Shown here: one piece after another, positions 35,400 to 58,491 of the stretch
Layout of the letters: every line of letters starts with the position of its first letter
Numbering within the stretch: the first letter of the stretch is position 1
Source: Candidatus Levyibacteriota bacterium
GTDB taxonomy: Bacteria > Patescibacteriota > Microgenomatia > Levybacterales > UBA12049
Direction: 5' to 3'
DNA length: 64,000 nt
Assembly: GCA_016214555.1 (NCBI GenBank)
Contig: JACROF010000012.1
Span: 203,485-267,484, forward strand
Made by a program: the position numbers and the translations under genes
The notes under the pieces: model-generated
Seen by the model: only the letters and a program-made list of their open reading frames with translations
Told to the model about the DNA's origin: nothing
The model's database searches: none

Positions 35400-35983
35400 T
35401 TAAGTTTAATTCTAGTTAGATTGAGCCACTTTTTACCTTCAAGCATAGATTTATCTTTTCCATCATAGTCAAGATAGCCATTTACTTTCCTTAGATCACT
35501 AATTGATTTTATAAATGCTATTGTTACGTTATCCCCGCTTTGATAGACAAGTTCATTTTTATCATATTTGATCGTGTTTTTTGGTATGGACATAACTTGA
35601 TCTATGGTTTTTGCGTCTGTGATAATATCAACGCTGGCAATTTTGTTAGATTCAAAATAAAGTACCGGATTATTATTTGCATTTTTAGCATCTGGAATTA
35701 AAAACTCTTCTGGAATCGATGTAATATTTTTATTAGCAATACCAGCTTTATTATAAAGAATACTTCCATATGAGTAGAATTCTCTAAATTTCCAAAATAC
35801 CTGAGGATTGATAGGGTCGTCTATAAGGGTATGCATAAACATTTCCCATTCTTTTTCACGATCCATTTTCAAAAAGGATGATGTCTTAGGGTTTAATAAG
35901 AAAAAGGATGCTAGAATTATGCCAAAAATAAGAAAAAACATTAGGTTGTCATGTGATGTTTTTATTTTTTGTGTTTTGTCCAT
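35396..35983 (-). CDS. Hypothetical N-terminally membrane-anchored extracytoplasmic protein
   Basis: Single N-terminal TM then a 160-aa hydrophilic domain. Lies on the opposite strand inside the glycosylation cluster. Confidence 0.4.
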   Translation of the reverse strand: MDKTQKIKTSHDNLMFFLIFGIILASFFLLNPKTSSFLKMDREKEWEMFMHTLIDDPINPQVFWKFREFYSYGSILYNKAGIANKNITSIPEEFLIPDAKNANNNPVLYFESNKIASVDIITDAKTIDQVMSIPKNTIKYDKNELVYQSGDNVTIAFIKSISDLRKVNGYLDYDGKDKSMLEGKKWLNLTRIKLN

Positions 35984-39419: not shown

Positions 39420-41012
39420 GTTTTTACTTCTTTTTACACCAATAATAAGAAGAAGAACGATCACTGAGCCTATCGATAGCATATTTGAAAACATTCTTAT
39501 TTTTGTATCTTCAAAGATAATTTCAATAAAATGGTTGCCTTTGTTAATTGTGAAAGTTATCAGTCCTTGATGATGTGGGTCCTGAAATTGAACAGGCACT
39601 TTTTTTCCATCAACATATACATTCCATCCTGGGAAATAGAGTGTATTATCTAATATTGTTAGTTCATCATGGGAGTAGGAATTGAAAGTATGCTTTATTG
39701 ATTTTTTGGATACATTTTTTATTTCACCGCTTCCGCCTATAATCTCAATATTTTTTTTTATTTCTCTTTCTGGATCACCAGGAGACCATATGGGAGTTGC
39801 CTCTGCTCGAAATGTGCTACTCCCACGATAATGCTGATAAAAAGAGTCTTTGTGAGTTTGAGATGGAATTATTTTTATAAAAGGTATCGCATAGAGTATA
39901 GAACAAAAAGCAAGAAGTACTAAAAATTTTATCGATATTTTTTTGTATAGGGATGAAAATAAGACAGCAGTTGAGAGCGATGATAGCATCATAAATCTCC
40001 ATGGAAATTGAAACTTTTTTAAAAAATCACTTTTCTCCCATAGAAAAATAGAAAAATTTGTGCTTAGAAATAATCCAATTAAAAAAACGATGATCCAGAA
40101 TGCTAGTATGGATTCATTAGCTCTTTTTTTAATAAAATAGTACAAACCTAGCACAGCTACTATTAATGCTGGTATTCCCACTTGGGGAGATAAGCCACCG
40201 ATTTTATTTACATCATCATCAAAACCCCACGGTGAATAGAACAAGCTTGTTAGTTGTAAAAAATGATCTTTGTACATATCTTTATGGAAAATAAGAAAGC
40301 TCATGTATTTTGACTCAATAAGTGAGGGTATCCAAAAATAAGATGAAATGCCAAGTCCAAATAGGAGAATAGGAAGCCACGTACGTAATTTGTGTCTTCT
40401 TATAAGGCAATAGAAGACAAATATTGGAGTAATCATTAGACTAACGCCATTATGGGAAAGAAGTATTAGGGTATACGCAAGTATTCCAAGAAGTAGCTTT
40501 TTGTTTTTCGCATCTACAGAGTAAAAGATTAATGGTATCAGGCTATATGCTAATATTTCTCCGATAGAACCTCTCACTAGTGTTGTTAGGAATCGATACG
40601 GCATGACTGTATAAAAAATACTTGATACAAACGCAAAATTTTTATTCGTAAGTTCTTTTGTCCATAGAAACCAAAAAACAGGTCCAAGAATAAACGAAAA
40701 GATAAGTAAGAGCGTATACGAGTTTTCAAGAGATAATCCCAGCAGATGGAAGAGTGCTGTTATGTATCCTGCGAAAGGATAAAATACGAGAAAAATTGGA
40801 GAACCATACCCAAAATTAAGTAGCGGTGCCCATCTGGGAGGAAATTGCATTTCAATTAGTGCATTCGCATAAGCATTTTCTCTAACAATGTGAACAAGCC
40901 CATCGTGGGTTATGAAGAAAGGGTGAAAAAAAATTGGTAAAAGTAATACAAGTGAAAATACGATAAGTATACTTACTATCCATAATGATGGTAGGTGAAG
41001 CAGTCTTTGCAT
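39414..41012 (-). CDS. YfhO-like GT-C membrane glycosyltransferase, paralog family A (4 of 4), inverted orientation
   Basis: FITHDGLVH...FPPRWAPLLNFGYGSPIFLVFYP, LVRGSIGE, C-terminal YFPGWNVYVDGK. The only family member on the minus strand. Confidence 0.5.
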   Translation of the reverse strand: MQRLLHLPSLWIVSILIVFSLVLLLPIFFHPFFITHDGLVHIVRENAYANALIEMQFPPRWAPLLNFGYGSPIFLVFYPFAGYITALFHLLGLSLENSYTLLLIFSFILGPVFWFLWTKELTNKNFAFVSSIFYTVMPYRFLTTLVRGSIGEILAYSLIPLIFYSVDAKNKKLLLGILAYTLILLSHNGVSLMITPIFVFYCLIRRHKLRTWLPILLFGLGISSYFWIPSLIESKYMSFLIFHKDMYKDHFLQLTSLFYSPWGFDDDVNKIGGLSPQVGIPALIVAVLGLYYFIKKRANESILAFWIIVFLIGLFLSTNFSIFLWEKSDFLKKFQFPWRFMMLSSLSTAVLFSSLYKKISIKFLVLLAFCSILYAIPFIKIIPSQTHKDSFYQHYRGSSTFRAEATPIWSPGDPEREIKKNIEIIGGSGEIKNVSKKSIKHTFNSYSHDELTILDNTLYFPGWNVYVDGKKVPVQFQDPHHQGLITFTINKGNHFIEIIFEDTKIRMFSNMLSIGSVIVLLLIIGVKRSKNL

Positions 41013-41082: not shown

Positions 41083-41829
41083 TTGTGTTTCATGTATAAT
41101 AATATAATTGTGAAATTATCGATTATTATTCCTGTTTATAATGAAGAGAAGACAATATCTGAAGTTGTTCGTGAAGTTAACGATGTAGTAATACCTGAGG
41201 TAAAGAAAGAAATAATCATCGTTAATGATTGCTCTACTGATAATACAGAAAGTGTCCTAAATAAGATAAAACAAGCAAGTAAGGATTTGATTATCATTAA
41301 TCATGAAAAAAATAAAGGGAAAGGCGCTGCTGTCAGAACAGGGTTTTCACATGCAACTGGTGATTATGTGATTATCCAAGATGCCGATTTAGAATATAAC
41401 CCTCAAGATTTTAAAAAATTGATTAAGCCGATCGTAAAAGGTGAAGCGCAGGTAGTCTATGGGACACGTTTGAAAAAAATGCCAGACTTGAGCGGGCATG
41501 GAACGATGTCTAAGACAAGATTTCTTCTCCATTTTTTTGGAAACAGGTTTTTGAGTTTGATTACAAGCATCCTTTATCTTCAATGGATAACTGATATGGA
41601 GACTTGTTATAAAATTTTTCCAAGAAAATTTCTTAAAAAAGTAACATTGAACGGTGAAGGTTTTAACTTTGAACCAGAAATAACCGCTAAGCTGGTGAAG
41701 TCAGGATATAAAATTGTTGAACTTCCCATTACGACTAAGCCTCGTGGATATAATGAGGGTAAAAAACTGCAAACATTCCCTGAGGGATTTAGTGCTTTGT
41801 GGACGTTGCTAAAATATAGATTTGTCTAG
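41083..41829 (+). CDS. GT2 polyprenol-phosphate sugar synthase (DPM1/GtrB-like), third copy
   Basis: LSIIIPVYNEE, IIIVNDCSTDNT, IQDAD (DxD) motifs; C-terminal region typical of the family. Confidence 0.85.
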   Translation: MCFMYNNIIVKLSIIIPVYNEEKTISEVVREVNDVVIPEVKKEIIIVNDCSTDNTESVLNKIKQASKDLIIINHEKNKGKGAAVRTGFSHATGDYVIIQDADLEYNPQDFKKLIKPIVKGEAQVVYGTRLKKMPDLSGHGTMSKTRFLLHFFGNRFLSLITSILYLQWITDMETCYKIFPRKFLKKVTLNGEGFNFEPEITAKLVKSGYKIVELPITTKPRGYNEGKKLQTFPEGFSALWTLLKYRFV

Positions 41830-43519
41830 TATGTCAAAAGCTCTCGTTTTTATCAATAAATGGTCAATTGGCATTTTGATTGCAATAACTCTTCTTGCCG
41901 CGATTTTAAGAATATATCATCTTGATCAAGTTCCAATTGGTTTTCATGCAGATGAAGCATATTTTGGATATAATGCTTATTCCATTTCGAAGTCATTACA
42001 AGATGCAACAGGAAATGTTTTGCCACTACATTTAGAATCATTCCTCTATAGTCCTGCTGGATATTCGTACATAGCAATACCATCGATCGTATTTTTCGGA
42101 CTTACTTCTTTTGCAATACGGTTACCAGGAGCACTATTTGGGATTGCGACAATTTTTTTTGTTTTTTTCCTCATAAAAGAGCTGTATAAAGATCAAAAAC
42201 ATAATAATATTCTTGGAATTGTTGTCAGTAGTCTTTTAGCAATTAGTCCGTGGCATATTAATCTCTCTCGAGCTTCAGCAGAGATTGTTGTCGTGGTTTT
42301 TTTAATTATGCTTGGCACATTTTTTTATAGTAAGTGGGTGGATCAGGGGAAAAAACTATTTATCTCTCTTTCTTTTATTTTCTTTACTGTTTCTTATGTT
42401 TTTTATCAAGCGCCTAGAGCTTTTCTTCCATTATTTATTCCTATCCTTTTTCTATTATATCGACCAAAGATTTCCGCCAAAAAGTTAGCTATTTTGATAG
42501 GTGCATATACGATCTGTATCGTTCTTCCAGTTGTAATGGTGCTTACATCAGATGTTCTTTCGTATAGGCTTAAGATGCTTTCTATTTTTAATTCACCACG
42601 GACAAACGCTTTGCTTTTTGAATCAATCACAGAAGATGGCCACCGTCAAAGGCCAGTTGCAGAGGTAAGATTATTTCATAACAAGGTAGCAGGATATGCT
42701 TCAGAAGTATTTACGGGTTACATGAAGCATCTATCATATGATTTTCTCTTCACTGACCAAGGATTTCCAGATAGATATCGTATCCCTAAGATGGGATTAT
42801 TATATATATTTGAATTACCACTTTTGCTGATTGGGATTTATTCGATAATCAGAAATAGGCATAAAATAGGATTCTTGTCGATTGCCTGGATTTTGATAGG
42901 ATTTGTTGGAGCATCTCTTACTTATGATGACATTCCAAATCTTCAGAGGACCCTCATTATATTTCCTGCACTTCATATAATTATTGGATTTGGATTATTC
43001 TATCTTTTTACAAACATCCCTAAGAGGTATCTAGCAAGGGTAAGTATTGCATGTATTTGTGTAGTATTTTATTTTTTCTTTTATTATCTTCATCAATATT
43101 ACTCTCATCAATTTATTCATAAGCCAATTTATAGACAACAAGGTTATGAGGGATTGGTCAATGCTATCCAGCAGGAATTACCAAGTTATAAAAGTATTCA
43201 TATAACATCGAACGAATCTTCCCCTCTCATATTATTTCTTTTTTATCTTTCATACGATCCTCGAGTTTTTCATGCTTATATATCTAGTAGAGAGCATAAT
43301 TATCTCAATGAGGATTTTGGGAAAATTAGTCTTGATAAATACATTTTTATACCAGAGGATTGCCCAAGTGAAAAAAATACTGACCCACTTATTTTATCTG
43401 TTGATTTAGGAAAGTGTGGTGTGTCTGATAAAAAAAATGTAGTTAAGGAAATTATGAGAAGCGATGGTAGTGTAATATTTAGACTTGTTAAGACTGGTCA
43501 AACGCAGGAGTCATTATGA
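41822..43519 (+). CDS. PMT_2/ArnT-like GT-C glycosyltransferase (GT39/83-type), WDE-family paralog 1 of 4
   Basis: First-loop motif FHADEAYFGYNAYSI; ~11 TM plus a C-terminal periplasmic domain. Clear paralog of 49740, 51435 and 53054. Confidence 0.65.
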   Translation: MSSMSKALVFINKWSIGILIAITLLAAILRIYHLDQVPIGFHADEAYFGYNAYSISKSLQDATGNVLPLHLESFLYSPAGYSYIAIPSIVFFGLTSFAIRLPGALFGIATIFFVFFLIKELYKDQKHNNILGIVVSSLLAISPWHINLSRASAEIVVVVFLIMLGTFFYSKWVDQGKKLFISLSFIFFTVSYVFYQAPRAFLPLFIPILFLLYRPKISAKKLAILIGAYTICIVLPVVMVLTSDVLSYRLKMLSIFNSPRTNALLFESITEDGHRQRPVAEVRLFHNKVAGYASEVFTGYMKHLSYDFLFTDQGFPDRYRIPKMGLLYIFELPLLLIGIYSIIRNRHKIGFLSIAWILIGFVGASLTYDDIPNLQRTLIIFPALHIIIGFGLFYLFTNIPKRYLARVSIACICVVFYFFFYYLHQYYSHQFIHKPIYRQQGYEGLVNAIQQELPSYKSIHITSNESSPLILFLFYLSYDPRVFHAYISSREHNYLNEDFGKISLDKYIFIPEDCPSEKNTDPLILSVDLGKCGVSDKKNVVKEIMRSDGSVIFRLVKTGQTQESL

Positions 43520-44433
43520 AAAAAGTTATTGTTTCTATCTTAGATTATAATGGACAGGATAAAACTCTTGCCTGTTTAAGATCGCTTGAAAATCTTGTTC
43601 TTCCTGATATCTTTCTTGAAGTTCTTGTAATAGATAATTACCCTCAAGGAAAATTTACTGTAGATAAAAAGCTCTTTCCATCACTTGAAATAACAATAAT
43701 TAAAACTAAAGAAAACAAAGGGTTTGCGGGGGGGCATAATGTGGGGTTTGAATACGCAATTAAAAAACAAATAGATTTTATTGTCATCTTGAATAATGAT
43801 ACTTATGTTGATAAAAATCTTATTAAGGAGTTAGTGAGATCAGCTGAGGAAAATCCTCAACGCGCAGCTGTAGTTCCAAAAATATATTTTGCAAAAGGCT
43901 TTGAGTATCATAAGGATCGTTATAAAAAGGATGAGCTGGGAAAGGTTTTTTGGTACGCAGGGGGCAGTATTGATTGGGACAATATTAATGGTGTTCACAG
44001 GGGAGTGGATGAGGTAGATAAAAAGCAGTATGATGATGAGCAAGAAACAGAGCTTTTAACAGGCTGCTGCGTATTGTTTAGAACTGATATTCTTCAAAAA
44101 ACAGGAGGGTTTGATGACCGATATTTTCTTTATTACGAAGATGCAGATCTTAATGAGAGAATCCATAGGCTTGGTTTTGTGATTTGGTACAACCCAAATG
44201 CAGTTCTCTGGCATATTAATGCAGGTTCAACTGGGGGGTCTGGATCAAATCTTCAGGATTATTTTATAAGTAGAAACCGCTTATTGTTTGGATTTCGATT
44301 CGCTCGTTTTAGAACAAAAGCCGCACTTTTGAGAGAAAGCGTAAGGATACTTTTCACAGGTCGGAAATGGCAAAGAAAAGGAGTAATAGATTTTTTTCGA
44401 CATAGGTATGGGAAGGGTAGTTTTGCTTTATGA
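43516..44433 (+). CDS. GT2 family glycosyltransferase (rhamnosyltransferase/WbbL-like)
   Basis: ENKGFAGGHNVG, ILNNDT, YYEDADL motifs. Confidence 0.8.
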   Translation: MKKVIVSILDYNGQDKTLACLRSLENLVLPDIFLEVLVIDNYPQGKFTVDKKLFPSLEITIIKTKENKGFAGGHNVGFEYAIKKQIDFIVILNNDTYVDKNLIKELVRSAEENPQRAAVVPKIYFAKGFEYHKDRYKKDELGKVFWYAGGSIDWDNINGVHRGVDEVDKKQYDDEQETELLTGCCVLFRTDILQKTGGFDDRYFLYYEDADLNERIHRLGFVIWYNPNAVLWHINAGSTGGSGSNLQDYFISRNRLLFGFRFARFRTKAALLRESVRILFTGRKWQRKGVIDFFRHRYGKGSFAL

Positions 44434-45191
44434 AAAAAAATACTTTAACAGGTGTGGTTATAGCCAGAAATGAAGAGGAAATGATAGGCGAATGTCTTGA
44501 ATCCCTTAGTTTTTGTGACTCTATTTTAGTTGTTGATAATAATTCATCAGATAACACTTCAAAAATAGCAAAAAAGAAGGGAGCTAAAGTTGTTTTTGCA
44601 GATTCTCATGATTTTTCAAGACTACGAAATTTTGCTTTGGATAAGATGTCATCTGATTATGTTCTCTATTTAGATGCTGATGAGCGAGTCAGCAAAGACC
44701 TTGCCAGCGAGATACTCAGTGTTCTTGCTGATAAAATTGATGTAGGAGCATTTTTTATACCTCGCCAAAATTATTATTTTGGGAATCATCTATGGCCAAA
44801 GAATGAGCGACTCGAGAGGCTTTTTAAGAAAAGTGCGTTAAAAGAGTGGAGAGGGATTCTTCATGAGTCACCAGTTGTTGTTGGTCCAATTGGCGAATTA
44901 CATAACCCAATTTTTCATTATACCCATAGAAATCTGTCATCAATGGTAGCAAAAACAAATGAATGGTCACTTAAAGAGGCAGAATTAAGACTCCAGGCAA
45001 ATCATCCTCCAGTATCATGGTGGAGATTTCCAAGAATTATGTTAAGCGCATTCCTTCAGTCATATATCAAGCAACAAGGCTATAAAGCAGGATATATTGG
45101 GATAATAGAAAGTATTTATCAGGCTTTTAGCATGTTTATTACTTACGCAAAATTATGGGAGCTTCAGCAGCAGAAGGTAGTAAAGGAATAA
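44430..45191 (+). CDS. GT2 family glycosyltransferase ('DADE' type), paralog 2 of 3
   Basis: GVVIARNEE, ILVVDNNSSDNT, YLDADE motifs; aligns along its length with 34473 and 58492. Confidence 0.8.
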   Translation: MKKNTLTGVVIARNEEEMIGECLESLSFCDSILVVDNNSSDNTSKIAKKKGAKVVFADSHDFSRLRNFALDKMSSDYVLYLDADERVSKDLASEILSVLADKIDVGAFFIPRQNYYFGNHLWPKNERLERLFKKSALKEWRGILHESPVVVGPIGELHNPIFHYTHRNLSSMVAKTNEWSLKEAELRLQANHPPVSWWRFPRIMLSAFLQSYIKQQGYKAGYIGIIESIYQAFSMFITYAKLWELQQQKVVKE

Positions 45192-45194
45192 ATA

Positions 45195-45431
45195 CTAGTT
45201 TGATTTTTTGAGGAATTTTTTCCAGGACTTTATTTCTTCGATCGTCAATTTCTTTTTTGCAAATTTAAAAAGATATATAATCTCAACGATTCCTACCGTA
45301 TTAATTACCAAAATAGCCACAAACCATAATTTTTGATCATTCTTGCTTGATCTCCACAATGCGATACCTTTCCAAACAAGTGACCAAAGTCCGACAACAT
45401 ATAACCATAATGGATAATTTGCAGTTGGCAT
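45195..45431 (-). CDS. Small 2-TM membrane protein (78 aa), hypothetical
   Basis: Two hydrophobic helices flanking a Trp/Lys-rich loop. Opposite strand within the cluster. Confidence 0.4.
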   Translation of the reverse strand: MPTANYPLWLYVVGLWSLVWKGIALWRSSKNDQKLWFVAILVINTVGIVEIIYLFKFAKKKLTIEEIKSWKKFLKKSN

Positions 45432-45485
45432 ATTACTATCCTATCATAGGTACTCAACAATTGCAAAACTTGTTACAATAGTAAT

Positions 45486-46565
45486 ATGAAAGTGGCAATT
45501 TTTGATCCTTACCTCGATACGATGTCTGGCGGAGAGAGATATATGCTTTCAATTGCTCTATGCTTACAGAACGATCATCAGGTCTCTATTTTATGGGACA
45601 AGACACCCGAAGATGAGATCATCTCTCTTGCAAAAAAAAGATTTTCGTATGATCTTAGTCAATGTAATTTTGTTCCATCATTTTTTTCTCCTCAAATTGG
45701 GACTTTTGCAAGATACAAGAAAAGCAAGGAATTTGATTTAATTATTTATCTTAGCGATGGGAGTATTCCTGTCGTAGGGTGTAATCTTTTTATACATTTT
45801 CAGTCTCCTATGCCATGGGTAAAAGGGAGGTCTTTGAAAAACATAATAAAATTGAGTCGTGCAAAAAAAATAATCTGTAACTCACAATTTACAAAAAAGT
45901 ACATAGATGAATTGTATGGTGTTAGAAGTATTGTGCTGTATCCGCCAGTATCAATTATGGAGAATTCTGAGTTCAAAAAAGAGAATGTCGTTCTTAATGT
46001 TGGAAGATTTGGAGTTAATCATGCTGGTTCAAGTTATAAAAAGCAGGATATTATGGCAGAGGTTTTCAAGAAAATGTCAGATAAAAATAGTATCAAGCAA
46101 TGGAAGCTGGTATTAGTTATGAGCGTACACGATCAAGATATGGAAAGAGTGGAAGAATTCAAAAAAAAGTATGCAGGTTTACCAATAGATTTTGTTATCA
46201 ATCCAGACAATGATACGCTTTGGGAATATTACAGTAGAGCAAAGATTTATTGGCATGCAGCAGGATTTGGTGAAGATATAATTAACCATCCAGATAGAGC
46301 AGAACATTTTGGAATTTCCACTGTTGAAGCAATGGGAGCTGGAGTAGTTCCAGTTGTTTTTGAGGCTGGAGGACAGAAAGAAATCGTTAAAAACAATGAA
46401 AACGGTATTCTATGGAAAACAAATGAAGAACTTGAGAACGCTACGATTCAGCTAATGAATGATGCCAACCTGTTGAGTAAGCTTTCAAAGCGTGCAGCAT
46501 CAGACGCGAAATTTTTTTCAATTGATACATTTTGCCAAAATGTTCAGACAGTAGTACAAAAATGA
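45486..46565 (+). CDS. GT4 family (GT-B, Glycos_transf_1) glycosyltransferase
   Basis: C-terminal EHFGISTVEAMGAGVVPVV....G..EIV matches the retaining GT4 E-x7-E signature. Confidence 0.8.
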   Translation: MKVAIFDPYLDTMSGGERYMLSIALCLQNDHQVSILWDKTPEDEIISLAKKRFSYDLSQCNFVPSFFSPQIGTFARYKKSKEFDLIIYLSDGSIPVVGCNLFIHFQSPMPWVKGRSLKNIIKLSRAKKIICNSQFTKKYIDELYGVRSIVLYPPVSIMENSEFKKENVVLNVGRFGVNHAGSSYKKQDIMAEVFKKMSDKNSIKQWKLVLVMSVHDQDMERVEEFKKKYAGLPIDFVINPDNDTLWEYYSRAKIYWHAAGFGEDIINHPDRAEHFGISTVEAMGAGVVPVVFEAGGQKEIVKNNENGILWKTNEELENATIQLMNDANLLSKLSKRAASDAKFFSIDTFCQNVQTVVQK

Positions 46566-48781
46566 AAAAAGACATTATTTGGATCGTATTATTATTCATT
46601 GTTATCTTATTTTTTTTCAAACCAATTTTTCTTAATCAAGTTCCAATACCAGCAGATACGCTAGTCAATCTTTTTCATCCGTTTAGAGACCTGTATGAAT
46701 CTGATTTTCCACGAGGGGTACCTTATAAAAATCCTTTAGTTGGGGATCCTGTTTTGCAGCAGATACCATGGAGAGAGTTATCGATAGATATTCTCAAAAA
46801 GGGAGAACTCCCTCTTTGGAATCCTTACCAGATGGCTGGTTATCCACTATCGCAAAATATTCAAAGTGCATCATTCTACCCACTCAATATTATTTTTTTC
46901 CTTCTACCATTCATAGATGCTTGGTCGATATACATTATTTTGCAAGTTATTTTAGGAGGGGTATATATGTATTTGTATCTGAGAAATCAAAGAATATCTA
47001 CTCAAGGAGCATTTTTTGGGAGTATTGCATTTTCTTTTTCAGGATTTAGTGTTTCGTGGCTTGAATGGGGGGTTGTTGGCCACACGGCGCTGTGGGCACC
47101 TCTCCTGTTGCTTTCAGTTGATAAATTTTTTGAGCAGCAGAAATATCGATGGCTTTTTATATTATTAGTTGGTCTTACATGTTCAGCTCTCGGTGGTCAC
47201 CTCCAGACATACATTTATGTAATAGCACTTTTTTGTGCGTATGTTTTATATAGAACTTCATTTTTAAGAAAATATGTACGTGAGTTTTTTTATGTGGTTC
47301 TAGTATTTATCTTATCAGCATTGCTTCTTTCTCCCGTGCTGTTTGGCCAAATGCAATTTATTCTTATATCTGCAAGAAATATCGATCAGTCCTGGAGTGA
47401 ATTAGGATGGTTTATACCACTACAAAATTTGATTCAATTTGTTGCGCCAAATTTTTTTGGAAATCCTGCAACAGGTAATTATTGGGGTATCTGGAATTAT
47501 GGAGAATTTATTGGATATATTGGAGTGATCCCTTTCTTTTTTGTTATTTTTGCATTATTTCATAAAGTAAAAGATTATCTTTTTTGGCTGACCATACTCA
47601 TTTTTGTATTTATTTTTGCATTTGATACTCAAATAGCTCGTATTCCTTACCAGCTGTCTATTCCATTTTTGTCTTCAGCACAGCCGACAAGACTAATTTT
47701 TCTTGCAGATGTTGCTTTGTGTATTTTGGCTGCAAAAGGGTTTGAAATGTTAATAATGCAAAAGAGAAATGTACTAGCTCCAATACTCTTTTTTAGTGGA
47801 ACTTTTCTTCTTGTTTTTCTTTATAGTTTTTTTGGACAAAAGTTAGGAGTAATTTCAGAAGAAAACATGAAGATAGCACTAAAAAACTTCATTATACCGT
47901 TGATACTTTTATTTTCGATAATTATACTTTTTGTAGCTAATTTTTACATCAAATATATTTCAAAACATATTGTTATTTTTGTTATATTGCTCATTACAGT
48001 AGTAGATCTATTATTTTTTGCACAAAAATACACACCATTTACAACAAAAGAATATTTTTATCCATATTCCAAAACAATTACTTACTTAACTTCGCAAAAA
48101 GAATTGTTTAGAATAATGACTACTGACAGAAGTATTCTTCACCCAAATATAGCAACATTTTACCGTATTCAGTCTATTGATGGATATGACCCTTTGTATA
48201 TACAGAGGCTTGGTGAATTTATGATCGCTATTGATAGAAATGAACCAAATATTACCCCTCCCTTTGGATATAATAGAATTGTTCATAAAGGGTATAGACA
48301 ATCCCCGTTTTATGACCTATTAGGAGTAAAGTACATTTTAAGTCTTACTGATCTAAAAGAAAAAACTTTGAAGAAGGTTTATCAAGAAGGAGAGACAAGA
48401 GTGTACGAGAATCGTAATGCTTTTCCAAGAGCATTTTTTGTAGGTGCGGTTGCACATGCATTAACAAAAGATGATGCAATTCAAATGATTTTTGACAAAA
48501 AAAATCTGCTTAAAGATGTAGGGGTTGTCGAAGGAAAGAATATTTCAGGAAAGTATTCAGTCGGTAAAGTTTTGATTGATTCATACACAGAAAATAAAAT
48601 TGTAATAACTACGAACAATGAAGGTGAGGGTTTTTTGGTTCTTACAGACACACACTATCCTTCCTGGTCAGTGTTGATAGATGGTGAAAAGTCATCGATA
48701 ATCTTAACAGATTTTGCTTTTAGGGGAGTAGTTGTTCCAAAGGGGGTACATAAGATAGAATTCATTAATAAGCTACTATGA
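46562..48781 (+). CDS. YfhO-family GT-C membrane glycosyltransferase (long form)
   Basis: N-terminal PLVGDPVLQQIPWREL....GELPLWNPYQMAGYPL resembles the YfhO signature region as I recall it. ~13 TM. C-terminal HYPSWSVLIDGEKS motif shared with family A. Start set to the Met overlapping the upstream stop (ATGA); the ORF track starts at 46532. Confidence 0.55.
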   Translation: MKKDIIWIVLLFIVILFFFKPIFLNQVPIPADTLVNLFHPFRDLYESDFPRGVPYKNPLVGDPVLQQIPWRELSIDILKKGELPLWNPYQMAGYPLSQNIQSASFYPLNIIFFLLPFIDAWSIYIILQVILGGVYMYLYLRNQRISTQGAFFGSIAFSFSGFSVSWLEWGVVGHTALWAPLLLLSVDKFFEQQKYRWLFILLVGLTCSALGGHLQTYIYVIALFCAYVLYRTSFLRKYVREFFYVVLVFILSALLLSPVLFGQMQFILISARNIDQSWSELGWFIPLQNLIQFVAPNFFGNPATGNYWGIWNYGEFIGYIGVIPFFFVIFALFHKVKDYLFWLTILIFVFIFAFDTQIARIPYQLSIPFLSSAQPTRLIFLADVALCILAAKGFEMLIMQKRNVLAPILFFSGTFLLVFLYSFFGQKLGVISEENMKIALKNFIIPLILLFSIIILFVANFYIKYISKHIVIFVILLITVVDLLFFAQKYTPFTTKEYFYPYSKTITYLTSQKELFRIMTTDRSILHPNIATFYRIQSIDGYDPLYIQRLGEFMIAIDRNEPNITPPFGYNRIVHKGYRQSPFYDLLGVKYILSLTDLKEKTLKKVYQEGETRVYENRNAFPRAFFVGAVAHALTKDDAIQMIFDKKNLLKDVGVVEGKNISGKYSVGKVLIDSYTENKIVITTNNEGEGFLVLTDTHYPSWSVLIDGEKSSIILTDFAFRGVVVPKGVHKIEFINKLL

Positions 48782-49728
48782 AAATTAGTATTGTTGTTCC
48801 AAATTACAATGGCGTAAAGTTAATTAAAGAAAATCTTCCTTTAGTCGTAAGCTCTTTGGTTTATTTTCGAAATAAGACCAACCATAATGTTGAATTAGTT
48901 GTCGTTGATGATGCATCCTCTGATGAGAGTGTGGAGTTTCTCAACTATTTTCAAAATAGAACAAAAGCCATAGATGTAATTATTGAAGTTAATAAAATTA
49001 ATAAAGGCTTTTCTCCAACAGTGAATATTGGTGTTAAAAAGTCTACTGGAGATATCGTGGTTTTGTTGAATTCAGATGTGATTCCAAGTGAGGATTTTCT
49101 TATTCCGCTTGTTAAACACTTTAGTAACGAAAATATTTTTGCAGCTGCATGTATGGATAAAAGTATTGAGGATGGGAAAACAGTTCTAAGAGGAAGAGGA
49201 GTAGGTCATTGGAAAAATGGTTTTTTGGCTCATAAAATGGGGGATCTAGAAAAGAAGAATACGTTATGGGCAAGCGGTGGAAGTAGTGCTTTTAGTAAAA
49301 AAATATGGAACAAGATTGGAGGATTATGTGAATTGTATGCCCCTTATTATTGGGAAGATATTGATTTATCATATCGAGCCTTAAAGTGTGGTTTTGAAGT
49401 TGTGTTTGAAAAGGAGAGTATTGTTATTCATAAACATGAAGAAGGGTCAATTAAAAAAAGCCAGTCTAAGCAAAAAGTTAATAAAATAGTTAATAGAAAT
49501 CAGCATATTTTTACATTGTTGAATGCGACAGATAAGAAAATTTTAGTTGAATATATTATTAATTTTCCATTATTTTTCCTTCGTGGAATTAAGAACAAAG
49601 ATACCTCGTATCTTTCTGGAACATTTATGATGATTGCTATACTTCCTCAAATATTATCGGCAAGAAAAACATTTCAGCATATGATGAGGAAATCTGATGC
49701 AGAAATTATTTCATCATTTGATAATTAA
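48778..49728 (+). CDS. GT2 family glycosyltransferase
   Basis: ISIVVPNYNG, VVVDDASSDES, NSD motifs; 316 aa. Confidence 0.8.
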   Translation: MKISIVVPNYNGVKLIKENLPLVVSSLVYFRNKTNHNVELVVVDDASSDESVEFLNYFQNRTKAIDVIIEVNKINKGFSPTVNIGVKKSTGDIVVLLNSDVIPSEDFLIPLVKHFSNENIFAAACMDKSIEDGKTVLRGRGVGHWKNGFLAHKMGDLEKKNTLWASGGSSAFSKKIWNKIGGLCELYAPYYWEDIDLSYRALKCGFEVVFEKESIVIHKHEEGSIKKSQSKQKVNKIVNRNQHIFTLLNATDKKILVEYIINFPLFFLRGIKNKDTSYLSGTFMMIAILPQILSARKTFQHMMRKSDAEIISSFDN

Positions 49729-49739
49729 TTATTTATAAC

Positions 49740-51413
49740 GTGGAAACAAAACTTTTTTCTGTTTTTCATAATAAATTTCTTCTTGTCTGCATCATCGTTC
49801 TTTCACTCATTGTTCATTTTTATCAGATTAATAAAATTCCTGCGTCGTTGTATTGGGATGAAGTTGCTGTTGGTTATAATGCATACTCTATTCTCCATAC
49901 TGGGAGAGATGAGTATGGAAATAAGTTCCCAATTCTTTTTGAATCTTATCATGATCTAAAGATGCCTGTTTTTGTATATCTATCTACTGTTAGCATTGCT
50001 GTTCTTGGGTTAAACGAACTTGCAATCAGATTCCCTTCCGCATTTTTTGGAGTCATTGGAGTTATTTTTTTGTATTTTCTTATTAAGAATTTAGATTTTA
50101 GAGATCAAAATGAAAAAACATACCTTGCATTGCTTTCAGCTTTTTTTCTAGCAATATCCCCTTGGCATATCATTTTTTCAAGAACTGGGTACGAGGCAAA
50201 TATTGCTTTAACCCTATTGATTATAGGATTTTATTTTTTCTATAAAGGATTAAGGCAATCATGGTATTTTTTAATATCAGCAATTTTTTATGTCGTAGCA
50301 TGTTATTGCTATAGAAGTTCATTGATTTTTGTCCCATTTTTTGTGACCTTTTTAACTGTTCATTTTTTTTCTGATTTAAAAAAAATAGAACTCAAGCAAT
50401 TATTGTTTTCAATTGTTTTTTTTATTTTTTTACTTTTGCCGCTCGTATCAGTACTCGCAAAGGGAGGCGACACTCGATTTTCACAGGTTAGTATTTTCTC
50501 AAATGTTAGTGATAAATCTATTGCCAATAATCAAAAAATGATTGAAAGTGGAAATGCCCTGTTTGCTAAGTTGATTTTTAATAGACGAATGGTGTATGTC
50601 AATGAGGCTTTAACTGGTTATTTTTCGCATTTCAGGCCAGATTTTCTATTTGTGTCAGGAGATGGGAACTTAAGACATACAGTTAGAGGAGCAGGACTTC
50701 TATATTTGTGGCAATTACCACTATTGATATTAGGAATACCATTTCTTCTTAAAAAAAACAGAAAATTTACAATAAGCATGATTGTGTGGTTATTAATCTC
50801 TCCTGTGAGCGCTAGCCTTGCTTTGCCAGTACCTCATGCTCTTCGTGTTATGCCGATGGTTGTTCCTCTTGTTGTTTTTAGCGCTGCAGGACTGCTGTCA
50901 ATTTTTTCTCTTTTAAAAAATACAAAGATCGTATATCTATTTAAGCTGGCTTCATTTTTTGTAATTTTTTTATCTTTTATAACTTTTTTAAAATTGTACT
51001 ATGTTCATAACACACAGATTTCCAATAGTGAATGGGGAGATGGCTACAAACAATTGGTGCAAAGAATAGGTGCGATAAGCAATAAATATGATAAAGTGAT
51101 AATTTCAGGTCATTATTGGCAACCATACATGTATGCACTGTTTTATTTAAGATTTGATCCTGCTTTATATCAGGAACACGGGACATCTGTTGCCTTTGAT
51201 AAATATATTTTCGGGGGAACAGACTGGGATAAAAGAGTGGGGAGGAGTGAGCTTGGCAATGTGGACTTAAGGAATTATGCGGGAAGAGCGAAAAATATTC
51301 TAGTTGCACTATCTCCTCAGGAGTATATAGCTCAACAAGACAAGGTGAAAAAAATTGACGAAGTAAAAGATTCAAATGGAAAAGTTGTATTTATACTCGC
51401 ATATTTAAATTAA
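49740..51413 (+). CDS. PMT_2/ArnT-like GT-C glycosyltransferase, WDE-family paralog 2 of 4
   Basis: LYWDEVAVGYNAYSILHTGRDEYGNKFP first-loop motif; GTG start per the ORF track. Tandem with 51435 and 53054. Confidence 0.65.
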   Translation: METKLFSVFHNKFLLVCIIVLSLIVHFYQINKIPASLYWDEVAVGYNAYSILHTGRDEYGNKFPILFESYHDLKMPVFVYLSTVSIAVLGLNELAIRFPSAFFGVIGVIFLYFLIKNLDFRDQNEKTYLALLSAFFLAISPWHIIFSRTGYEANIALTLLIIGFYFFYKGLRQSWYFLISAIFYVVACYCYRSSLIFVPFFVTFLTVHFFSDLKKIELKQLLFSIVFFIFLLLPLVSVLAKGGDTRFSQVSIFSNVSDKSIANNQKMIESGNALFAKLIFNRRMVYVNEALTGYFSHFRPDFLFVSGDGNLRHTVRGAGLLYLWQLPLLILGIPFLLKKNRKFTISMIVWLLISPVSASLALPVPHALRVMPMVVPLVVFSAAGLLSIFSLLKNTKIVYLFKLASFFVIFLSFITFLKLYYVHNTQISNSEWGDGYKQLVQRIGAISNKYDKVIISGHYWQPYMYALFYLRFDPALYQEHGTSVAFDKYIFGGTDWDKRVGRSELGNVDLRNYAGRAKNILVALSPQEYIAQQDKVKKIDEVKDSNGKVVFILAYLN

Positions 51414-51434
51414 TCTGTTTGTTATACTAAGAAT

Positions 51435-53057
51435 GTGAGAAAAAATGTTGTATTTTTATTGTTAATTGTTTTTTTGGGTGGATTATTGCGTTTTTGGGGC
51501 TTAACTAATGTTCCACCGAGTCTTTATTGGGACGAAGTGTCTCAAGGTTATAATGCCTATTCTATTCTAAAGACTGGAAAAGACGAACATCAAGAAAGTT
51601 TTCCAATCACGCGGTTCCAAGCATTTGGTGACAATAAAGCTCCAGTAAACATTTATCTCACAGTTATTTCACTTGGAATGTTTGGGAAAAATGATTTTTC
51701 AGTAAGATTTCCATCAGCATTTTTGGGAACAATGACAATAGTAATGACGTTTTTTTTGGTAAAATTTCTTTTTTACTACGAAAAAGAGAAAGATTTGCTT
51801 GCACTCGTTTCCTCACTTTTCCTTGCTATATCTCCTTGGCATATTCAATTATCCCGTGCTGCGTATGAAGGAAACATTGCGACGTTTTTTACGGTAGCAG
51901 CATTAGCATTGTTTTTTGTGTCACTTGTAAAAAACAAATGGTATTTTTTAGGAAGTGTAATTTGCTTTGTTTTAGCATTTTATTCATTTAATGCGCATCG
52001 GGTATTTATCCCCATTATAGTTTTATTTATTGGGTTGCTGTATTGGAAAAATATCCTAAAGAAAAAGAAAGTCTTTTTTATTAGCATAACTACAGGTATT
52101 TTGTTGCTGCTGCCATTCCTTTTCTATTTACAAACCCCAGAAAGCAGATTGAGATTTAATGAAGTTAATATTTTTTCAGATATTGGAGTAATCGAACAGT
52201 CTAATAAATTACTTGCGAATGATACTGTGTCAATCTTGAAAGTATTTGATAATAGAAGAGTATTATTTTTAGAATCATATTTTAAACATTATTTTGATTT
52301 TTATAACCCTGTATATTTATTTATCAAAGGAGATGTTAATCCCAGATTCTCAGATCAGTTTAATGGAGAGTTGTATTTGTGGATTTTACCTTTATTGTTA
52401 ATAGGTTTTTATGGTCTCTATCTTAGGAAATCTCGAGTTGCATTATTTATAGTTGGATGGTTTTTGATTGCTCCACTTGCAGCAGCAACTGCAAGAGAGA
52501 CGCCTCATGCGCTTCGGAGTGAGACCTTTATTCCTGTTTTTGAGATCATTTCTGGTGTGGGTGTGCTCTCATTTTTTTCATCTATCAAGACGCACAGAAG
52601 TGTTTATAGAACTTCAGTATTATTTGGGTGTTTTATCATCGTTTTTTCTTTATACGCATTTTTTCATAACTATTTTTCTCATAATTCCAAACTTAATTCT
52701 TATGATTGGCAGTACGGATATAGACAGGCAATTGAGTATGTTGAGAGCGTAAAGAAAGATTACAACAAGATTTATTTTACCAATACGTATGGTAGGCCCT
52801 CAATATATGTTGCATGGTACTCAAACATTTCTCCTCAAGAGTATTGGAGGGGGATACGTACCGTTAAGGATTCGGTTGGATTTTATAACACCCCTCAGCT
52901 CAATAATTATTTTTTTGTAAATGAATTTCCACAAAACATTGATAATAAAACTATTATTGTAACTGAGCAATCAAAAAAATTAAAAGACGTAAGTATTCTT
53001 AAAACAGTAAATTTTTTAAATGGTGATCCAGCTTTTGTTATTGCAAAGGGGAAATGA
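51435..53057 (+). CDS. PMT_2/ArnT-like GT-C glycosyltransferase, WDE-family paralog 3 of 4
   Basis: LYWDEVSQGYNAYSILKTGKDEHQESFP; GTG start; same architecture and C-terminal W..GY motif as its neighbours. Confidence 0.65.
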   Translation: MRKNVVFLLLIVFLGGLLRFWGLTNVPPSLYWDEVSQGYNAYSILKTGKDEHQESFPITRFQAFGDNKAPVNIYLTVISLGMFGKNDFSVRFPSAFLGTMTIVMTFFLVKFLFYYEKEKDLLALVSSLFLAISPWHIQLSRAAYEGNIATFFTVAALALFFVSLVKNKWYFLGSVICFVLAFYSFNAHRVFIPIIVLFIGLLYWKNILKKKKVFFISITTGILLLLPFLFYLQTPESRLRFNEVNIFSDIGVIEQSNKLLANDTVSILKVFDNRRVLFLESYFKHYFDFYNPVYLFIKGDVNPRFSDQFNGELYLWILPLLLIGFYGLYLRKSRVALFIVGWFLIAPLAAATARETPHALRSETFIPVFEIISGVGVLSFFSSIKTHRSVYRTSVLFGCFIIVFSLYAFFHNYFSHNSKLNSYDWQYGYRQAIEYVESVKKDYNKIYFTNTYGRPSIYVAWYSNISPQEYWRGIRTVKDSVGFYNTPQLNNYFFVNEFPQNIDNKTIIVTEQSKKLKDVSILKTVNFLNGDPAFVIAKGK

Positions 53058-54661
53058 TGAAAAAAAACTTAATCTTACTTACTATTATTGTTTTCTTGGG
53101 AGTTTTTATAAGATTTTATCAATTAGGTAGTGTGCCTCTTTCGTTAAATTGGGATGAGGTGTCAATAGGATACAACGCTTACTCAATTCTCCATTCAGGA
53201 AAAGACGAATACGGCACAACTTATCCTCTCACATTTCGTTCATTTGGAGATTATAAACAGCCAGTTTATATATATCTTAGTACTATTCCTATTAAATTTC
53301 TTGGTTTAAACGAAGTATCTGTAAGATTTCTTTCTTCGTTTATGGGATCAATAAGCGTTATTTTTGTGTACCTCTTAGTAAGAGAGTTATTTTATAAATC
53401 AAAAAACAAAGAAACATTTGCAATTTTTTCTACAGGATTATATGCAATTTCTCCTTGGTCAGTACAGTTTAGTCGATTTGCATCAGAGGCTAATGTTGGT
53501 ATGTGTCTTGTTATCGGTGGAGCATTTTTATTTTTATATGCAATAAGAAAAAATAATCTTTTTTACCTATTACTCTCAGCAATCATTTTTACTTTTAGTA
53601 TGTATACATACCATAGTCAAAAAGTATTTACCCCTTTTCTTGTTTGCATTCTATTTGTTATTCATTTCCGATATTTATTAAAAAATAGAGTAAAAACGTT
53701 GTTGTTTATTGTTCTTTTCATTCTTTTAAATTTATTTTGGATTGTTGATCCCTCATCCACAGCAAGAGGGAAAAGTGTATTGATAACATCAGGACAGACG
53801 CAACTTCTCGAAAATCCAATTAAATATGGATATCAAGACAAACAAAGTGGAGACGTTATTGGTGCAATTCTTCACAATAGGAGAGCGGTCTATCTGCAAG
53901 TCTTCCTAAAAAATTACCTTTCACACTTTGACCCATCATTCCTCTTTTTGGAGGGAGATAACGCGAGACACCATGCTCCTTATATGGGAGTTGAATATTT
54001 AATAACTCTTCCATTTATCGTTATTGGGTTGTTGCATTTATGGAGAAATTACCGCTTTCAAGCGAAATTTTTATCTGCATGGTTAATTGTCGCGCCAATT
54101 ACGTCATCATTAGCAATTGATTCTCCAAATGCAATAAGAAGTATGATGTTTCTTCCAATACTTCAAATATTTGGTGCTTTTGGCATATGGAGCATGTATC
54201 AACAGTTGAAGTATCGTATGAAAAAAATAATTATTTTATTAATTATTGTTGGATATTTAGTGAATTTTTCCTACTATCTCCATCATTACTTTAATCACAC
54301 AAATCTTCTCTATGCGAGATATTGGCAGTTTGGTTATAAAGAAGCTGTTTTGAAAGCTACATCGATTAAAGACATCCCTGTTGTTTTTGCTCCCGATATT
54401 GAACAAGGCTACGTATTTTATCTTTTTTATTCACAGCAAAATCCATCTAAATACCTAGAGAAAAATGGATCAGACATGGCAAGTGATAAGTGTTTTGGCA
54501 TAGAGAATAAATACTTTGGCAACTGCCTTGATCAGTTTGATAAAGGATATTATGTTTCTTCAAAGCCACTTCCACAAACGTTGAATAGTGAAAGTAATGA
54601 GATGATTAGCTATCCTGATAAAACAACAGCAGTTACTTTGTATCGATTTACTAAAAAATAA
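53054..54661 (+). CDS. PMT_2/ArnT-like GT-C glycosyltransferase, WDE-family paralog 4 of 4
   Basis: LNWDEVSIGYNAYSILHSGKDEYGTTYP; 4-nt overlap with the upstream paralog. Confidence 0.65.
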   Translation: MMKKNLILLTIIVFLGVFIRFYQLGSVPLSLNWDEVSIGYNAYSILHSGKDEYGTTYPLTFRSFGDYKQPVYIYLSTIPIKFLGLNEVSVRFLSSFMGSISVIFVYLLVRELFYKSKNKETFAIFSTGLYAISPWSVQFSRFASEANVGMCLVIGGAFLFLYAIRKNNLFYLLLSAIIFTFSMYTYHSQKVFTPFLVCILFVIHFRYLLKNRVKTLLFIVLFILLNLFWIVDPSSTARGKSVLITSGQTQLLENPIKYGYQDKQSGDVIGAILHNRRAVYLQVFLKNYLSHFDPSFLFLEGDNARHHAPYMGVEYLITLPFIVIGLLHLWRNYRFQAKFLSAWLIVAPITSSLAIDSPNAIRSMMFLPILQIFGAFGIWSMYQQLKYRMKKIIILLIIVGYLVNFSYYLHHYFNHTNLLYARYWQFGYKEAVLKATSIKDIPVVFAPDIEQGYVFYLFYSQQNPSKYLEKNGSDMASDKCFGIENKYFGNCLDQFDKGYYVSSKPLPQTLNSESNEMISYPDKTTAVTLYRFTKK

Positions 54662-54700
54662 ACTGTTGCGAAGGGTGTATAAGTTATATACTATTTTTAT

Positions 54701-56443
54701 ATGCTAAATGTTAAGCGAATAAGGATTTTATCGAAAGCATATCAATGGCTTAAGAAAAATGATCACGCTGTTGTTTCGCTTTTTTTCTCCCTCGTCTTAG
54801 CCGTTCTTCTTGTGAATGCATTTCATGAAATGTACCCTGATGAGTTCGATAACATTTTGGGGGGATGGTATATAACTCATGGAGTTCCTATTTATACTGG
54901 TTTCTTTACTCACCATGGTCCAGTTGCCTATTTCATTTCGGCAGTTATTACACTAGTAACCCAGAATTCTTTTGTTGCATTTCGAATAGCTTTTGCTATT
55001 TTAGTTTTTTCTCACCTTGTCTGGTCCTATGTTTATTTGAGAAGAAAAGTTGGTAAAGATAGAAGCGTTTTCTATCTTGTATTTGTTGGAATAATAGCAC
55101 TTGCTGGGAATTATTACTGGTTACACATGATCCTTGCTGATACACTTGCAGCATATTTTTTAGCACCTGTTATTGCACTTTTATTAATCTCAAGCTACTT
55201 CAAACTAGCCTTAACAAGGAAAGATATGATCGTTATTTCGTTATTAACGTCAATGACAGTCTTGAGCTCACTTACTTTCCTTTTTTTGTCAATACTTATA
55301 TATCTATATAGTTGTTACTTTTATTTACGTTCAAATAGCATAAAGATTTTTTCTCGAAGAACAGGAGAGCTAGCTTTGATTTTTCTTGCTCCCTATTTTG
55401 TTTTTTTCGTATACCTCGTTGCAACAGCTAGTTTAAAAGAATATATATACCAAGGGTGGGTATTTAATCAAAAATATTATGTTTATAACTATCCACGTCC
55501 CGATGGGGTAACAAGAATTAACCCGATTCGTTATGCAGTTGTAATCGCTAATACATTTTATAACAGCTATTTCACACTTCTTGAACAAGTGAAGACTCTC
55601 AATATTGGTTTTCCTTTGAATATAACCCTTGCGTCAGGAACCTTTGGTACTGCATTATATTTTTTTATTAAAAAAAGATACCTGTTTGCAACAACTTTTC
55701 TTGGATTTTTGATATATGCAAATTCTCGAAGTGATCCATTAAATTCAAAAGAGACTGATTATCAATCTGCAGTTTATATCATGATAGCATTTATTGTTAT
55801 TCCTTTTATCCTCATTGAGATTTTTCGGAAGGTTGATGACAACAAAAGGCTTGGAGAGCGAATCGTTTCAATAGTACTGTTCTTAACTATTGGATTTTAT
55901 GCACTGTTTTCTTCTCTATTTTTATTTCAAAAATTTTTCAATAGAACATATGAGAAATATATGGGTTATGCTTCCCTTATTTATGATAGACCAGAAATTG
56001 CGCCAGTAATAAATAAAATTGTTGATGTGAATGAGCCTGTTTGGATTGGCCCCTTTGAGTTTAGAGAGCTATTGTATGTACATGGAAAACCTGCATCACA
56101 GTACCAAATTTTTATTCCAGGGATGGGTTATTCGCCTGAGATAAGAGGTAAATTTATTCAAGATTTTGAAAAAAGTAAACCTTCAATAATTTATTTTCAA
56201 AAAACATACTTTATCTTAGGAAGAAGTCCTGAGACGTATGGTCAATTTTTTCTTGACTATCTTAATTCACATTATATAACCCTTTTTGATTATAGAGATA
56301 ATGGAATTAGATATAGATCAACAGTGGCAAAATCAGATACCCTCGATTTAGAAGGAAGATTGTATATAAGGAAAGAGAAAGCAAGAGATGTTATTAGGAG
56401 AATGCTAGATCAGAAACTTGTTTATCCATCATCTGAGGAATAG
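54701..56443 (+). CDS. Polytopic membrane protein (580 aa), possible GT-C-type glycosyltransferase, unclassified
   Basis: ~12 TM. Early acidic loop motif (YPDEFDN) reminiscent of GT-C DE/DD motifs; C-terminal soluble domain. Confidence 0.35.
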   Translation: MLNVKRIRILSKAYQWLKKNDHAVVSLFFSLVLAVLLVNAFHEMYPDEFDNILGGWYITHGVPIYTGFFTHHGPVAYFISAVITLVTQNSFVAFRIAFAILVFSHLVWSYVYLRRKVGKDRSVFYLVFVGIIALAGNYYWLHMILADTLAAYFLAPVIALLLISSYFKLALTRKDMIVISLLTSMTVLSSLTFLFLSILIYLYSCYFYLRSNSIKIFSRRTGELALIFLAPYFVFFVYLVATASLKEYIYQGWVFNQKYYVYNYPRPDGVTRINPIRYAVVIANTFYNSYFTLLEQVKTLNIGFPLNITLASGTFGTALYFFIKKRYLFATTFLGFLIYANSRSDPLNSKETDYQSAVYIMIAFIVIPFILIEIFRKVDDNKRLGERIVSIVLFLTIGFYALFSSLFLFQKFFNRTYEKYMGYASLIYDRPEIAPVINKIVDVNEPVWIGPFEFRELLYVHGKPASQYQIFIPGMGYSPEIRGKFIQDFEKSKPSIIYFQKTYFILGRSPETYGQFFLDYLNSHYITLFDYRDNGIRYRSTVAKSDTLDLEGRLYIRKEKARDVIRRMLDQKLVYPSSEE

Positions 56444-56445
56444 AT

Positions 56446-58446: not shown

Positions 58447-58491
58447 TACTGAGTTCTGGAAATAATGTAGTTATTTCTCTACAATGGTACT

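Follow-up and report, generated by a model that had tools for sequence, protein, structure and literature searches.

Ancient paralogs of a PMT_2-like GT-C glycosyltransferase family in a membrane-protein-rich gene island of a Candidatus Levyibacteriota genome

The stretch of DNA considered here, referred to below as the window, comprises 64,000 nucleotides of contig JACROF010000012.1 (positions 203,485 to 267,484 of the forward strand) from the Candidatus Levyibacteriota bacterium assembly GCA_016214555.1. Tightly packed genes run from about 25.4 kb to the right-hand end of the window and form an island of about 38 kb. Our subject is four membrane proteins encoded in this island, A, B, C and D (Table 1), which belong to one family of GT-C glycosyltransferases, the genes of three of them (B, C and D) standing head to tail. 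Sequence comparison with related genomes indicates that the duplications from which they arose are ancient and that the copies have been stably kept.

Four paralogous membrane glycosyltransferase genes

A first-pass annotation of the window had described these four genes as paralogs of a PMT_2/ArnT-like GT-C family, and all four open reading frames (ORFs) were found where it had placed them. The two GTG starts that it reported in the triplet, those of B and C, match independent gene calls. B and C are separated by 21 nt. D begins within C, with an overlap of 4 nt between the ATG of the one and the TGA of the other, and upstream of this start the end of C contains AAGGGG, a sequence resembling a Shine-Dalgarno site. 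The TTG from which A was called is no more than the first possible start of this frame; the in-frame ATG at 41831, one base past the TAG stop of the upstream GT2 gene, is the more likely one. The mechanically assigned starts of two further island ORFs are, like that of A, probably too early, those of I (59249 being preferred to 59192) and O (46562 to 46532).

Table 1. Genes and other features discussed in the text (window coordinates)
Label	Feature	Position	Strand	Remarks
A	Paralog A, PMT_2-like GT-C glycosyltransferase	41822..43519	+	565 aa from TTG 41822; likelier 562 aa from ATG 41831
B	Paralog B, triplet gene 1	49740..51413	+	GTG start, 557 aa; Pfam PMT_2 31.3 bits
C	Paralog C, triplet gene 2	51435..53057	+	GTG start, 540 aa; most conserved copy
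D	Paralog D, triplet gene 3	53054..54661	+	535 aa; Pfam PMT_2 47.4 bits
F	Diverged fifth family member	37695..39419	+	574 aa; NDQ replaces WDE
E	Remote PMT_2-family GT-C	27449..28963	+	504 aa; TDE motif (FTDEAIY); Pfam PMT_2 39.3 bits
I	Remote PMT_2-like membrane protein	59192..60715	+	Gene callers start at 59249, 488 aa; weak precomputed PMT_2 match
G	GT-C-fold membrane protein, family without Pfam model	54701..56443	+	Directly downstream of D
H	Polytopic membrane protein, about 13 predicted helices; possibly GT-C-like	56446..58446	+	No Pfam match
K, L	Tandem pair, second GT-C-like family (PTPS_related, YfhO-related)	28960..32303	+	4-nt overlap; PF10131
M	Third member of second family	36007..37698	+	blastp 26-27% identity to K, L, N; hhalign probability 100
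N	Fourth member of second family	39414..41012	-	31% identity to K, E 3e-63; PF10131
O	YfhO-family GT-C	46532..48781	+	Called as 739 aa from 46562; Pfam YfhO 59.3 bits
GT2-41083	Short GT2, DPMS/ArnC/GtrB/AglJ-like	41083..41829	+	Pfam Glycos_transf_2 133.5 bits; abuts A
GT2-48778	GT2 glycosyltransferase	48778..49728	+	11 nt upstream of B; Pfam Glycos_transf_2 81.3 bits
GT2-25460, J	Short GT2 (PgfS/ArnC-like), then J, GT87-like membrane glycosyltransferase	25460..27432	+	Left edge of island; Pfam matches
GT2-32303, flippase	Short GT2 (PgfS/ArnC/AglJ-like) and Wzx-type polysaccharide flippase-like protein	32303..34471	+	Glycos_transf_2 102.5 bits, Polysacc_synt_3 149.7 bits
	195-aa protein, no family match	35396..35983	-	
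	234-aa ORF, possible foreign surface protein	14270..14974	-	G+C 0.55
	Membrane acyltransferase	365..1498	-	Pfam Acyl_transf_3; about 24 kb from island

That the four proteins are paralogs is clear from both types of comparison used. In blastp, B, C and D share 34 to 37% identity (B/C 36%, E 4e-85; B/D 37%, E 5e-90; C/D 34%, E 1e-87) and A is 26 to 31% identical to each of them (E 1e-43 to 2e-54), and hhalign profile-profile comparison gives a probability of 100 for every pair. At the nucleotide level the copies can be aligned merely in patches of 62 to 268 nt with 65 to 77% identity, far from the identity above 95% that the first-pass annotation would have read as an artefact, and the similarity of the proteins is highly significant. 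Two more distant relatives had also been named correctly: F is a clear member of the family (23 to 27% identity to A-D, E down to 7e-21; hhalign probability 99.8 to 100, E 1e-30 to 1e-43), and E is a remote PMT_2 protein (hhalign probability 97 to 98.6 to A-D). Protein I is another remote relative, with hhalign probabilities of 96 to 98 to A-F, so that the PMT_2 group of the island is made up of A, B, C, D and F together with the remote E and I.

The shared first-loop motif is present in all four paralogs, as WDEV(S/A)xGYNAYSI in B, C and D and as ADEAYFGYNAYSI in A, the ADE of which corresponds to residues 43-45. The C-terminal W..GY motif, on the other hand, is not common to all four as had been proposed, being restricted to B, C and D (WGDGY, WQYGY and WQFGY) whereas A has RQQGY at this position.

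By Pfam score, motif and fold, A to D are PMT_2/GT39-like GT-C proteins, and they lack the distinguishing features looked for in ArnT, the oligosaccharyltransferases and the eukaryotic type of PMT. The Pfam gathering scores are 26.1 bits for PMT_2 (PF13231) and 22.7 bits for PMT (PF02366); the former is exceeded by B, C (43.9 bits), D and E, the latter by C (31.9 bits). No MIR or PMT_4TMC domain was matched in the paralogs by Pfam at E <= 0.01, and the proteins are 535 to 565 aa long against 690 to 731 aa for the solved PMT chains. None of the GT-C or GT2 proteins of the island reached the cut-off of an NCBIfam equivalog. At 50% identity and E <= 1e-30 the family comprises 2,551 clusters and is thus a large one. 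The paralog genes already carry a routine NCBI annotation as GT39 family; an NCBI entry with the name 'glycosyltransferase family 39 protein', encoded in a metagenome-assembled genome (MAG) of Candidatus Levybacteria, matches C at 100% identity.

The structure of C was modelled with AlphaFold2 from an alignment of 35 sequences. The model (predicted local distance difference test 90.3, predicted template modelling score 0.90) has some 11 to 13 membrane helices and, at its C-terminal end, an alpha/beta domain of roughly 115 residues, and places the paralogs in the GT-C fold (GT-C_A class). Comparison of this model with known structures, with which a Foldseek search agrees, gave figures of 23.9 for STT3B, 23.2 for ArnT, 22.1 for Pmt4, 21.1 for ALG12, 20.7 for Pmt2 and 20.0 for AglB, so that in the predicted structure ArnT, PMT and STT3 are about equally close and fold alone cannot choose the subfamily.

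The residues expected to matter for catalysis were followed through 272 family sequences. D33 is invariant in the A, B, C, D and F clades, E34 is invariant in the A, B, C and D clades and present in 87% of F, and R91 and R361 are found in every sequence of the A, B, C and D clades. R141 (95-100%), P134 (96-100%) and W135 (93-100%) are nearly constant across clades, and S133 and E145 are also highly conserved. On this pattern all of A to D look catalytically competent. As the short N-terminus is basic, the DE motif, which comes after the first membrane helix, should face outward by the positive-inside rule. Other residues are conserved within clades and differ between them (positions 37, 243, 302, 355, 453 and 454 of C), which argues for separate specificities of the paralogs.

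Age of the duplications

The history of the family was examined in 82 loci (80 from species-representative genomes, plus loci L001 and L002), the named ones being from Levy-, Gottesman-, Curtiss- and Chisholmbacteria and from unclassified Patescibacteria, in which ORFs were called and classified against the window proteins. More than 100 homologs of C elsewhere in Patescibacteria are 48 to 64% identical to it, far closer than the paralogs in its own genome. The C orthologs, exactly one of which occurs at each of the 82 loci, form a single clade (bootstrap value 0.78) that contains no A, B, D or F sequence. Together with the conserved neighbours of C described below, this argues that the splits between the paralogs, or at least that of C, predate the divergence of the sampled lineages.

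Gene order tells the same story. The order B-C-D-G-H is retained in relatives whose proteins are only 45 to 75% identical to those of the window (L001 and L003). L003, the closest relative, is collinear over 19 kb at 69.5% nucleotide identity. L001, with a C protein 57% identical, has the same succession of GT2, A, GT2, GT2, GT4, YfhO, B, C, D, G, H, GT2, I and epimerase genes, and differs by a single extra I-like gene between G and H. The slot directly downstream of the C ortholog is occupied by a D-like gene on the same strand in 66 of the 82 loci, the commonest spacing being -4 nt. The slot upstream of it is far more variable (B-like in 10 loci, D-like in 10, A-like in 8, other genes in 30 and none in 24), and two to five family members are found per locus of about 21 kb in 77 of the 82 (range one to seven). 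The changing upstream slot reflects turnover over long evolutionary distances and not recent amplification. Taken together, the low identity among the copies, the closer orthologs in other genomes and the shared gene order argue that the duplications are ancient and have been stably maintained.

Many of these relatives, L003, L004, L006 and L012 among them, are titled 'uncultured Gammaproteobacteria bacterium' in the database yet are collinear with the Levybacteria island; the titles appear to be placeholders or wrong labels for Patescibacteria MAGs.

The surrounding island

The island encodes 15 large polytopic membrane proteins, 13 to 15 of which are GT-C-like, along with a set of soluble or transport partners: eight GT2 and two GT4 glycosyltransferases, a GalE-like epimerase and the Wzx-type flippase-like protein. 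Its packing is operon-like. Between 41083 and 61743 the intergenic gaps range from -4 to +53 nt, the exception being a gap of 294 nt before 45486. Two minus-strand genes, that of the 195-aa protein and N, break the otherwise single direction of the island and divide it into at least three transcription units. They occupy the wider gaps in the run of plus-strand genes, at about 35.4-36.0 kb and 39.4-41.1 kb.

Three short GT2 proteins (those starting at 25460, 32303 and 41083) resemble polyprenyl-phosphate sugar synthases. The one adjoining A gives a full-length match to the Pyrococcus furiosus dolichyl-phosphate-mannose synthase (DPMS; 5mlz) and further matches to ArnC and to sll0501, the last of which we take to be GtrB-like; its best NCBIfam match is AglJ, at 123.7 bits and under the cut-off. 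The top NCBIfam match of GT2-25460 is PgfS, likewise under the cut-off. GT2-41083 is the probable producer of the lipid-linked sugar donor.

Among the remaining membrane proteins, G carries an invariant HExYPDEFDN motif following its first membrane helix. H, which comes next after G in close relatives, is matched to A, B and K with hhalign probabilities of 85 to 94. A second family of paralogs, which the first-pass annotation did not cover, is formed by K, L, M and N, whose members are 26 to 31% identical to one another (29% for the tandem pair K and L, E 3e-57). This family is related to the YfhO-like protein O, to which K, M and N are matched with hhalign probabilities of 97 to 99 (99.0 for K) and L with a probability of 86.3.

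At the left edge of the island (about 25400-26000) the G+C content falls from about 0.41 to about 0.33. We considered whether this lower G+C might mean that the island was acquired horizontally, but have mostly rejected this, as the drop lies chiefly in the first codon positions (0.55 to 0.41) and G+C at third codon positions (GC3) changes little (about 0.31 to about 0.25). The fall at first codon positions reflects the amino-acid composition of membrane proteins.

Two features of the window lie outside the island. The 234-aa ORF has a GC3 of 0.63 and stands in a region of about 0.40 G+C; its cysteine-rich product has a signal peptide and ends in an LPNTG motif, a hydrophobic stretch and a basic tail, as in a sortase-type sorting signal, and may be a foreign surface protein. 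The membrane acyltransferase near the left end of the window is of a type that often takes part in O-acetylating surface glycans, and an Acyl_transf_3 gene is also found inside the related locus L002 (6699-7736).

Proposed function and comparison with known systems

We regard it as likely that A to D are ancient, retained GT-C paralogs from a large Patescibacteria family and transfer sugars from polyprenyl phosphate to acceptors outside the membrane, each with its own specificity and all within one envelope pathway. Cytoplasmic short GT2 enzymes (GT2-41083, GT2-32303 and GT2-25460) would take one sugar from a nucleotide sugar and attach it to polyprenyl phosphate, and the lipid-linked sugar would then be flipped across the membrane. 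There, each GT-C paralog would use the Asp-Glu pair of its first loop to pass the sugar to an acceptor, which could be a serine or threonine of a surface or secreted protein or else a wall glycopolymer. The paralogs would thus represent steps or branches of a single envelope-glycosylation pathway encoded by the island. As each has its own orthologs and clade-specific residues, it probably also has its own donor, acceptor or linkage specificity, and the copies would not be redundant.

The two-step logic of this scheme is established for Ppm1/Pmt, ArnC/ArnT and GtrB/GtrC. In streptococci, pairs of a GT-A undecaprenyl-phosphate-sugar synthase and a GT-C transferase (GtrB/PgtC2 and PgfS/PgfM1) glycosylate Ser/Thr-rich extracytoplasmic regions of proteins, and the same GT-A/GT-C pairing glycosylates teichoic acids in Bacillus and Listeria (bioRxiv 10.1101/2024.05.05.592596).

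Several observations weigh against the scheme or weaken its supports. The PMT_2 score of A, 21.3 bits, is under the gathering score, though hhalign relates A to B, C and D with a probability of 100. Agl23, the best NCBIfam match for the paralogs, reaches 42 bits where its cut-off is 126. A Pfam scan of ORFs of 100 aa or more identified no small GtrA-type flippase. The tree is a bootstrapped neighbour-joining tree of corrected p-distances and not a maximum-likelihood one; its support is confined to the C clade and to shallow clades, with values near 0 for the deep branching order of A, B, C, D and F and low support for the D clade as delimited here.

A refinement of this scheme, possible but in our view doubtful, is that C and D are the obligate partners in one heteromeric GT-C enzyme, with A and B as separate enzymes or alternative partners. 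There are precedents: members of the PMT1 and PMT2 subfamilies work as heterodimers, and of the three GT-C paralogs that embCAB encodes in tandem, EmbA and EmbB pair with each other. The persistent adjacency of C and D (66 of 82 loci, modal ATGA overlap of 4 nt), the overlapping start of D in the window with the Shine-Dalgarno-like sequence before it, the retention of catalytic residues in both clades, as in both partners of Pmt1-Pmt2, and the resemblance of the C model to Pmt2 and Pmt4 are all consistent with such an enzyme. Close packing and overlap are, however, normal across the island and would be equally expected of consecutive steps of a pathway, and in 16 of the 82 loci no D-like gene follows C. 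Because 4-nt overlaps are the rule in the island, we hold the heteromer to be less likely than not.

Bolder, and rather unlikely, is the notion that a translationally coupled C-D heterodimer works with B, G, H and the other eight to ten GT-C-like proteins as an assembly line on the outside of the membrane. If true, it would mean a Microgenomates-specific envelope glycan made entirely from polyprenyl-phosphate monosaccharides, a route that would suit cells with very limited cytoplasmic biosynthesis, and G, for which Pfam has no model, would represent an undescribed GT-C family.

It is improbable that the paralogs are ArnT-type enzymes acting on a membrane glycolipid (lipid A-like or a lipoglycan) instead of on proteins or wall polymers. 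ArnT is about as near to the C model in fold as PMT and STT3 are, but with the ArnT equivalog model (NF009784), which has a cut-off of 567 bits, C scores only 17.1 and the other three paralogs give no match, and C matches Pfam PMT. Candidate Phyla Radiation bacteria of this group are not known to have lipopolysaccharide pathways.

Still less can be said for oligosaccharyltransferases that, like PglB, AglB and STT3, would transfer a whole glycan from polyprenyl diphosphate to proteins, and we think this very unlikely. STT3B gives the highest figure in the structure comparison, but the WWD motif (WWDxG) that such enzymes carry in their C-terminal domain outside the membrane is absent from all 15 membrane proteins of the island, B, C and D having W..GY in its place, the Pfam assignment is to PMT/PMT_2, the C-terminal domain is far smaller than theirs, and a search of PDB sequences with a profile of the five paralogs returned only a weak hit to STT3 (E 0.006 over 98 residues).

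The first-pass annotation had instead explained the triplet as a lipid-linked-sugar transferase amplified in tandem in recent times, under selection for a variable surface in encounters with phage or host. Three copies do stand head to tail, loci of this kind are often variable, and different GT-C paralogs occupy the slot upstream of the C ortholog in different lineages. The idea is nevertheless contradicted, and is hardly tenable, since the copies are so divergent in protein and DNA while C orthologs in other genomes reach 50 to 64% identity, since the C clade excludes every other paralog, and since the B-C-D order, the collinear 19 kb and the adjacency of C and D are shared with other organisms. 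No relatives of the paralogs were found when viral contigs were scanned, and there is thus no sign of phage-borne copies. Selection for surface variability as such, taken apart from recent amplification, is possible.

An expanded or mis-joined repeat, for which nothing speaks beyond the general risk of MAG assemblies, can be dismissed, because the run SRR12113407, assembled independently in Logan, yields the same three genes in a sequence that agrees with window 44567-63057 at 100% identity over 18,491 bases, the copies are too divergent to confuse an assembler, and the arrangement recurs in other organisms.

About 38 kb is devoted to 13 to 15 GT-C-like membrane glycosyltransferases in a lineage with small genomes, and the core of the island (the C-D pair, often with further paralogs and G) is common to MAGs of the Microgenomates group and of other Patescibacteria. 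The island points to a complex system, conserved between lineages, of envelope glycans or glycoproteins in organisms that are thought to attach to hosts through their surfaces. No account of this GT-C family or of a GT-C-rich island in Patescibacteria was found in the literature searched. Of lasting value are the conservation of C and D as a pair, the dense packing of GT-C genes into a small genome and the existence, in G, of a GT-C family that is still unannotated.

The nearest known kinds of system are the bacterial Pmt/Ppm1 pair (GT39), ArnT (GT83), the tandem embCAB paralogs and the YfhO-type systems of Firmicutes. ArnT (5ezm, 5f15) shows 10 to 12% identity, besides the low equivalog score, and its lipid A acceptor is unlikely in this lineage. 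The eukaryotic Pmt1-Pmt2 heterodimer and Pmt4 homodimer (6p25/6p2r, 9e61) differ in having MIR domains, which the paralogs lack, and in being about 200 residues longer.

The actinobacterial Pmt shares with the paralogs the GT-C fold, the DE motif in the first outside-facing loop, a length of about 500 to 560 aa, the absence of MIR and the match to Pfam PMT/PMT_2, and the DPMS-like GT2-41083 adjoining A recalls Ppm1, the polyprenol-phosphate-mannose synthase with which Pmt works. Against this, the paralogs are only 12 to 16% identical to the solved PMT structures, no PMT_4TMC domain was detected in them by Pfam, and there are five to seven of them at this locus, whereas a single Pmt gene is known from actinobacteria.

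In the Firmicutes systems a GT-A enzyme (GtrB, CsbB or PgfS) makes the undecaprenyl-phosphate sugar and a YfhO-type GT-C (PgtC2, PgfM1 or YfhO) transfers it outside. The island has one YfhO homolog and four PTPS_related/YfhO-like paralogs of its own, and short GT2 enzymes whose best NCBIfam match, below its cut-off, is PgfS; A to D, however, belong to the PMT_2 branch, and their hhalign probabilities to O are only 1 to 54%. As an arrangement of genes, the triplet has a parallel in the mycobacterial embCAB operon (7bvf, 7bvh), in which three diverged GT-C arabinosyltransferases, EmbA and EmbB as a heterodimer and EmbC as a homodimer, are encoded in tandem and assemble envelope glycans on the outer side of the membrane from polyprenyl-phosphate sugars.

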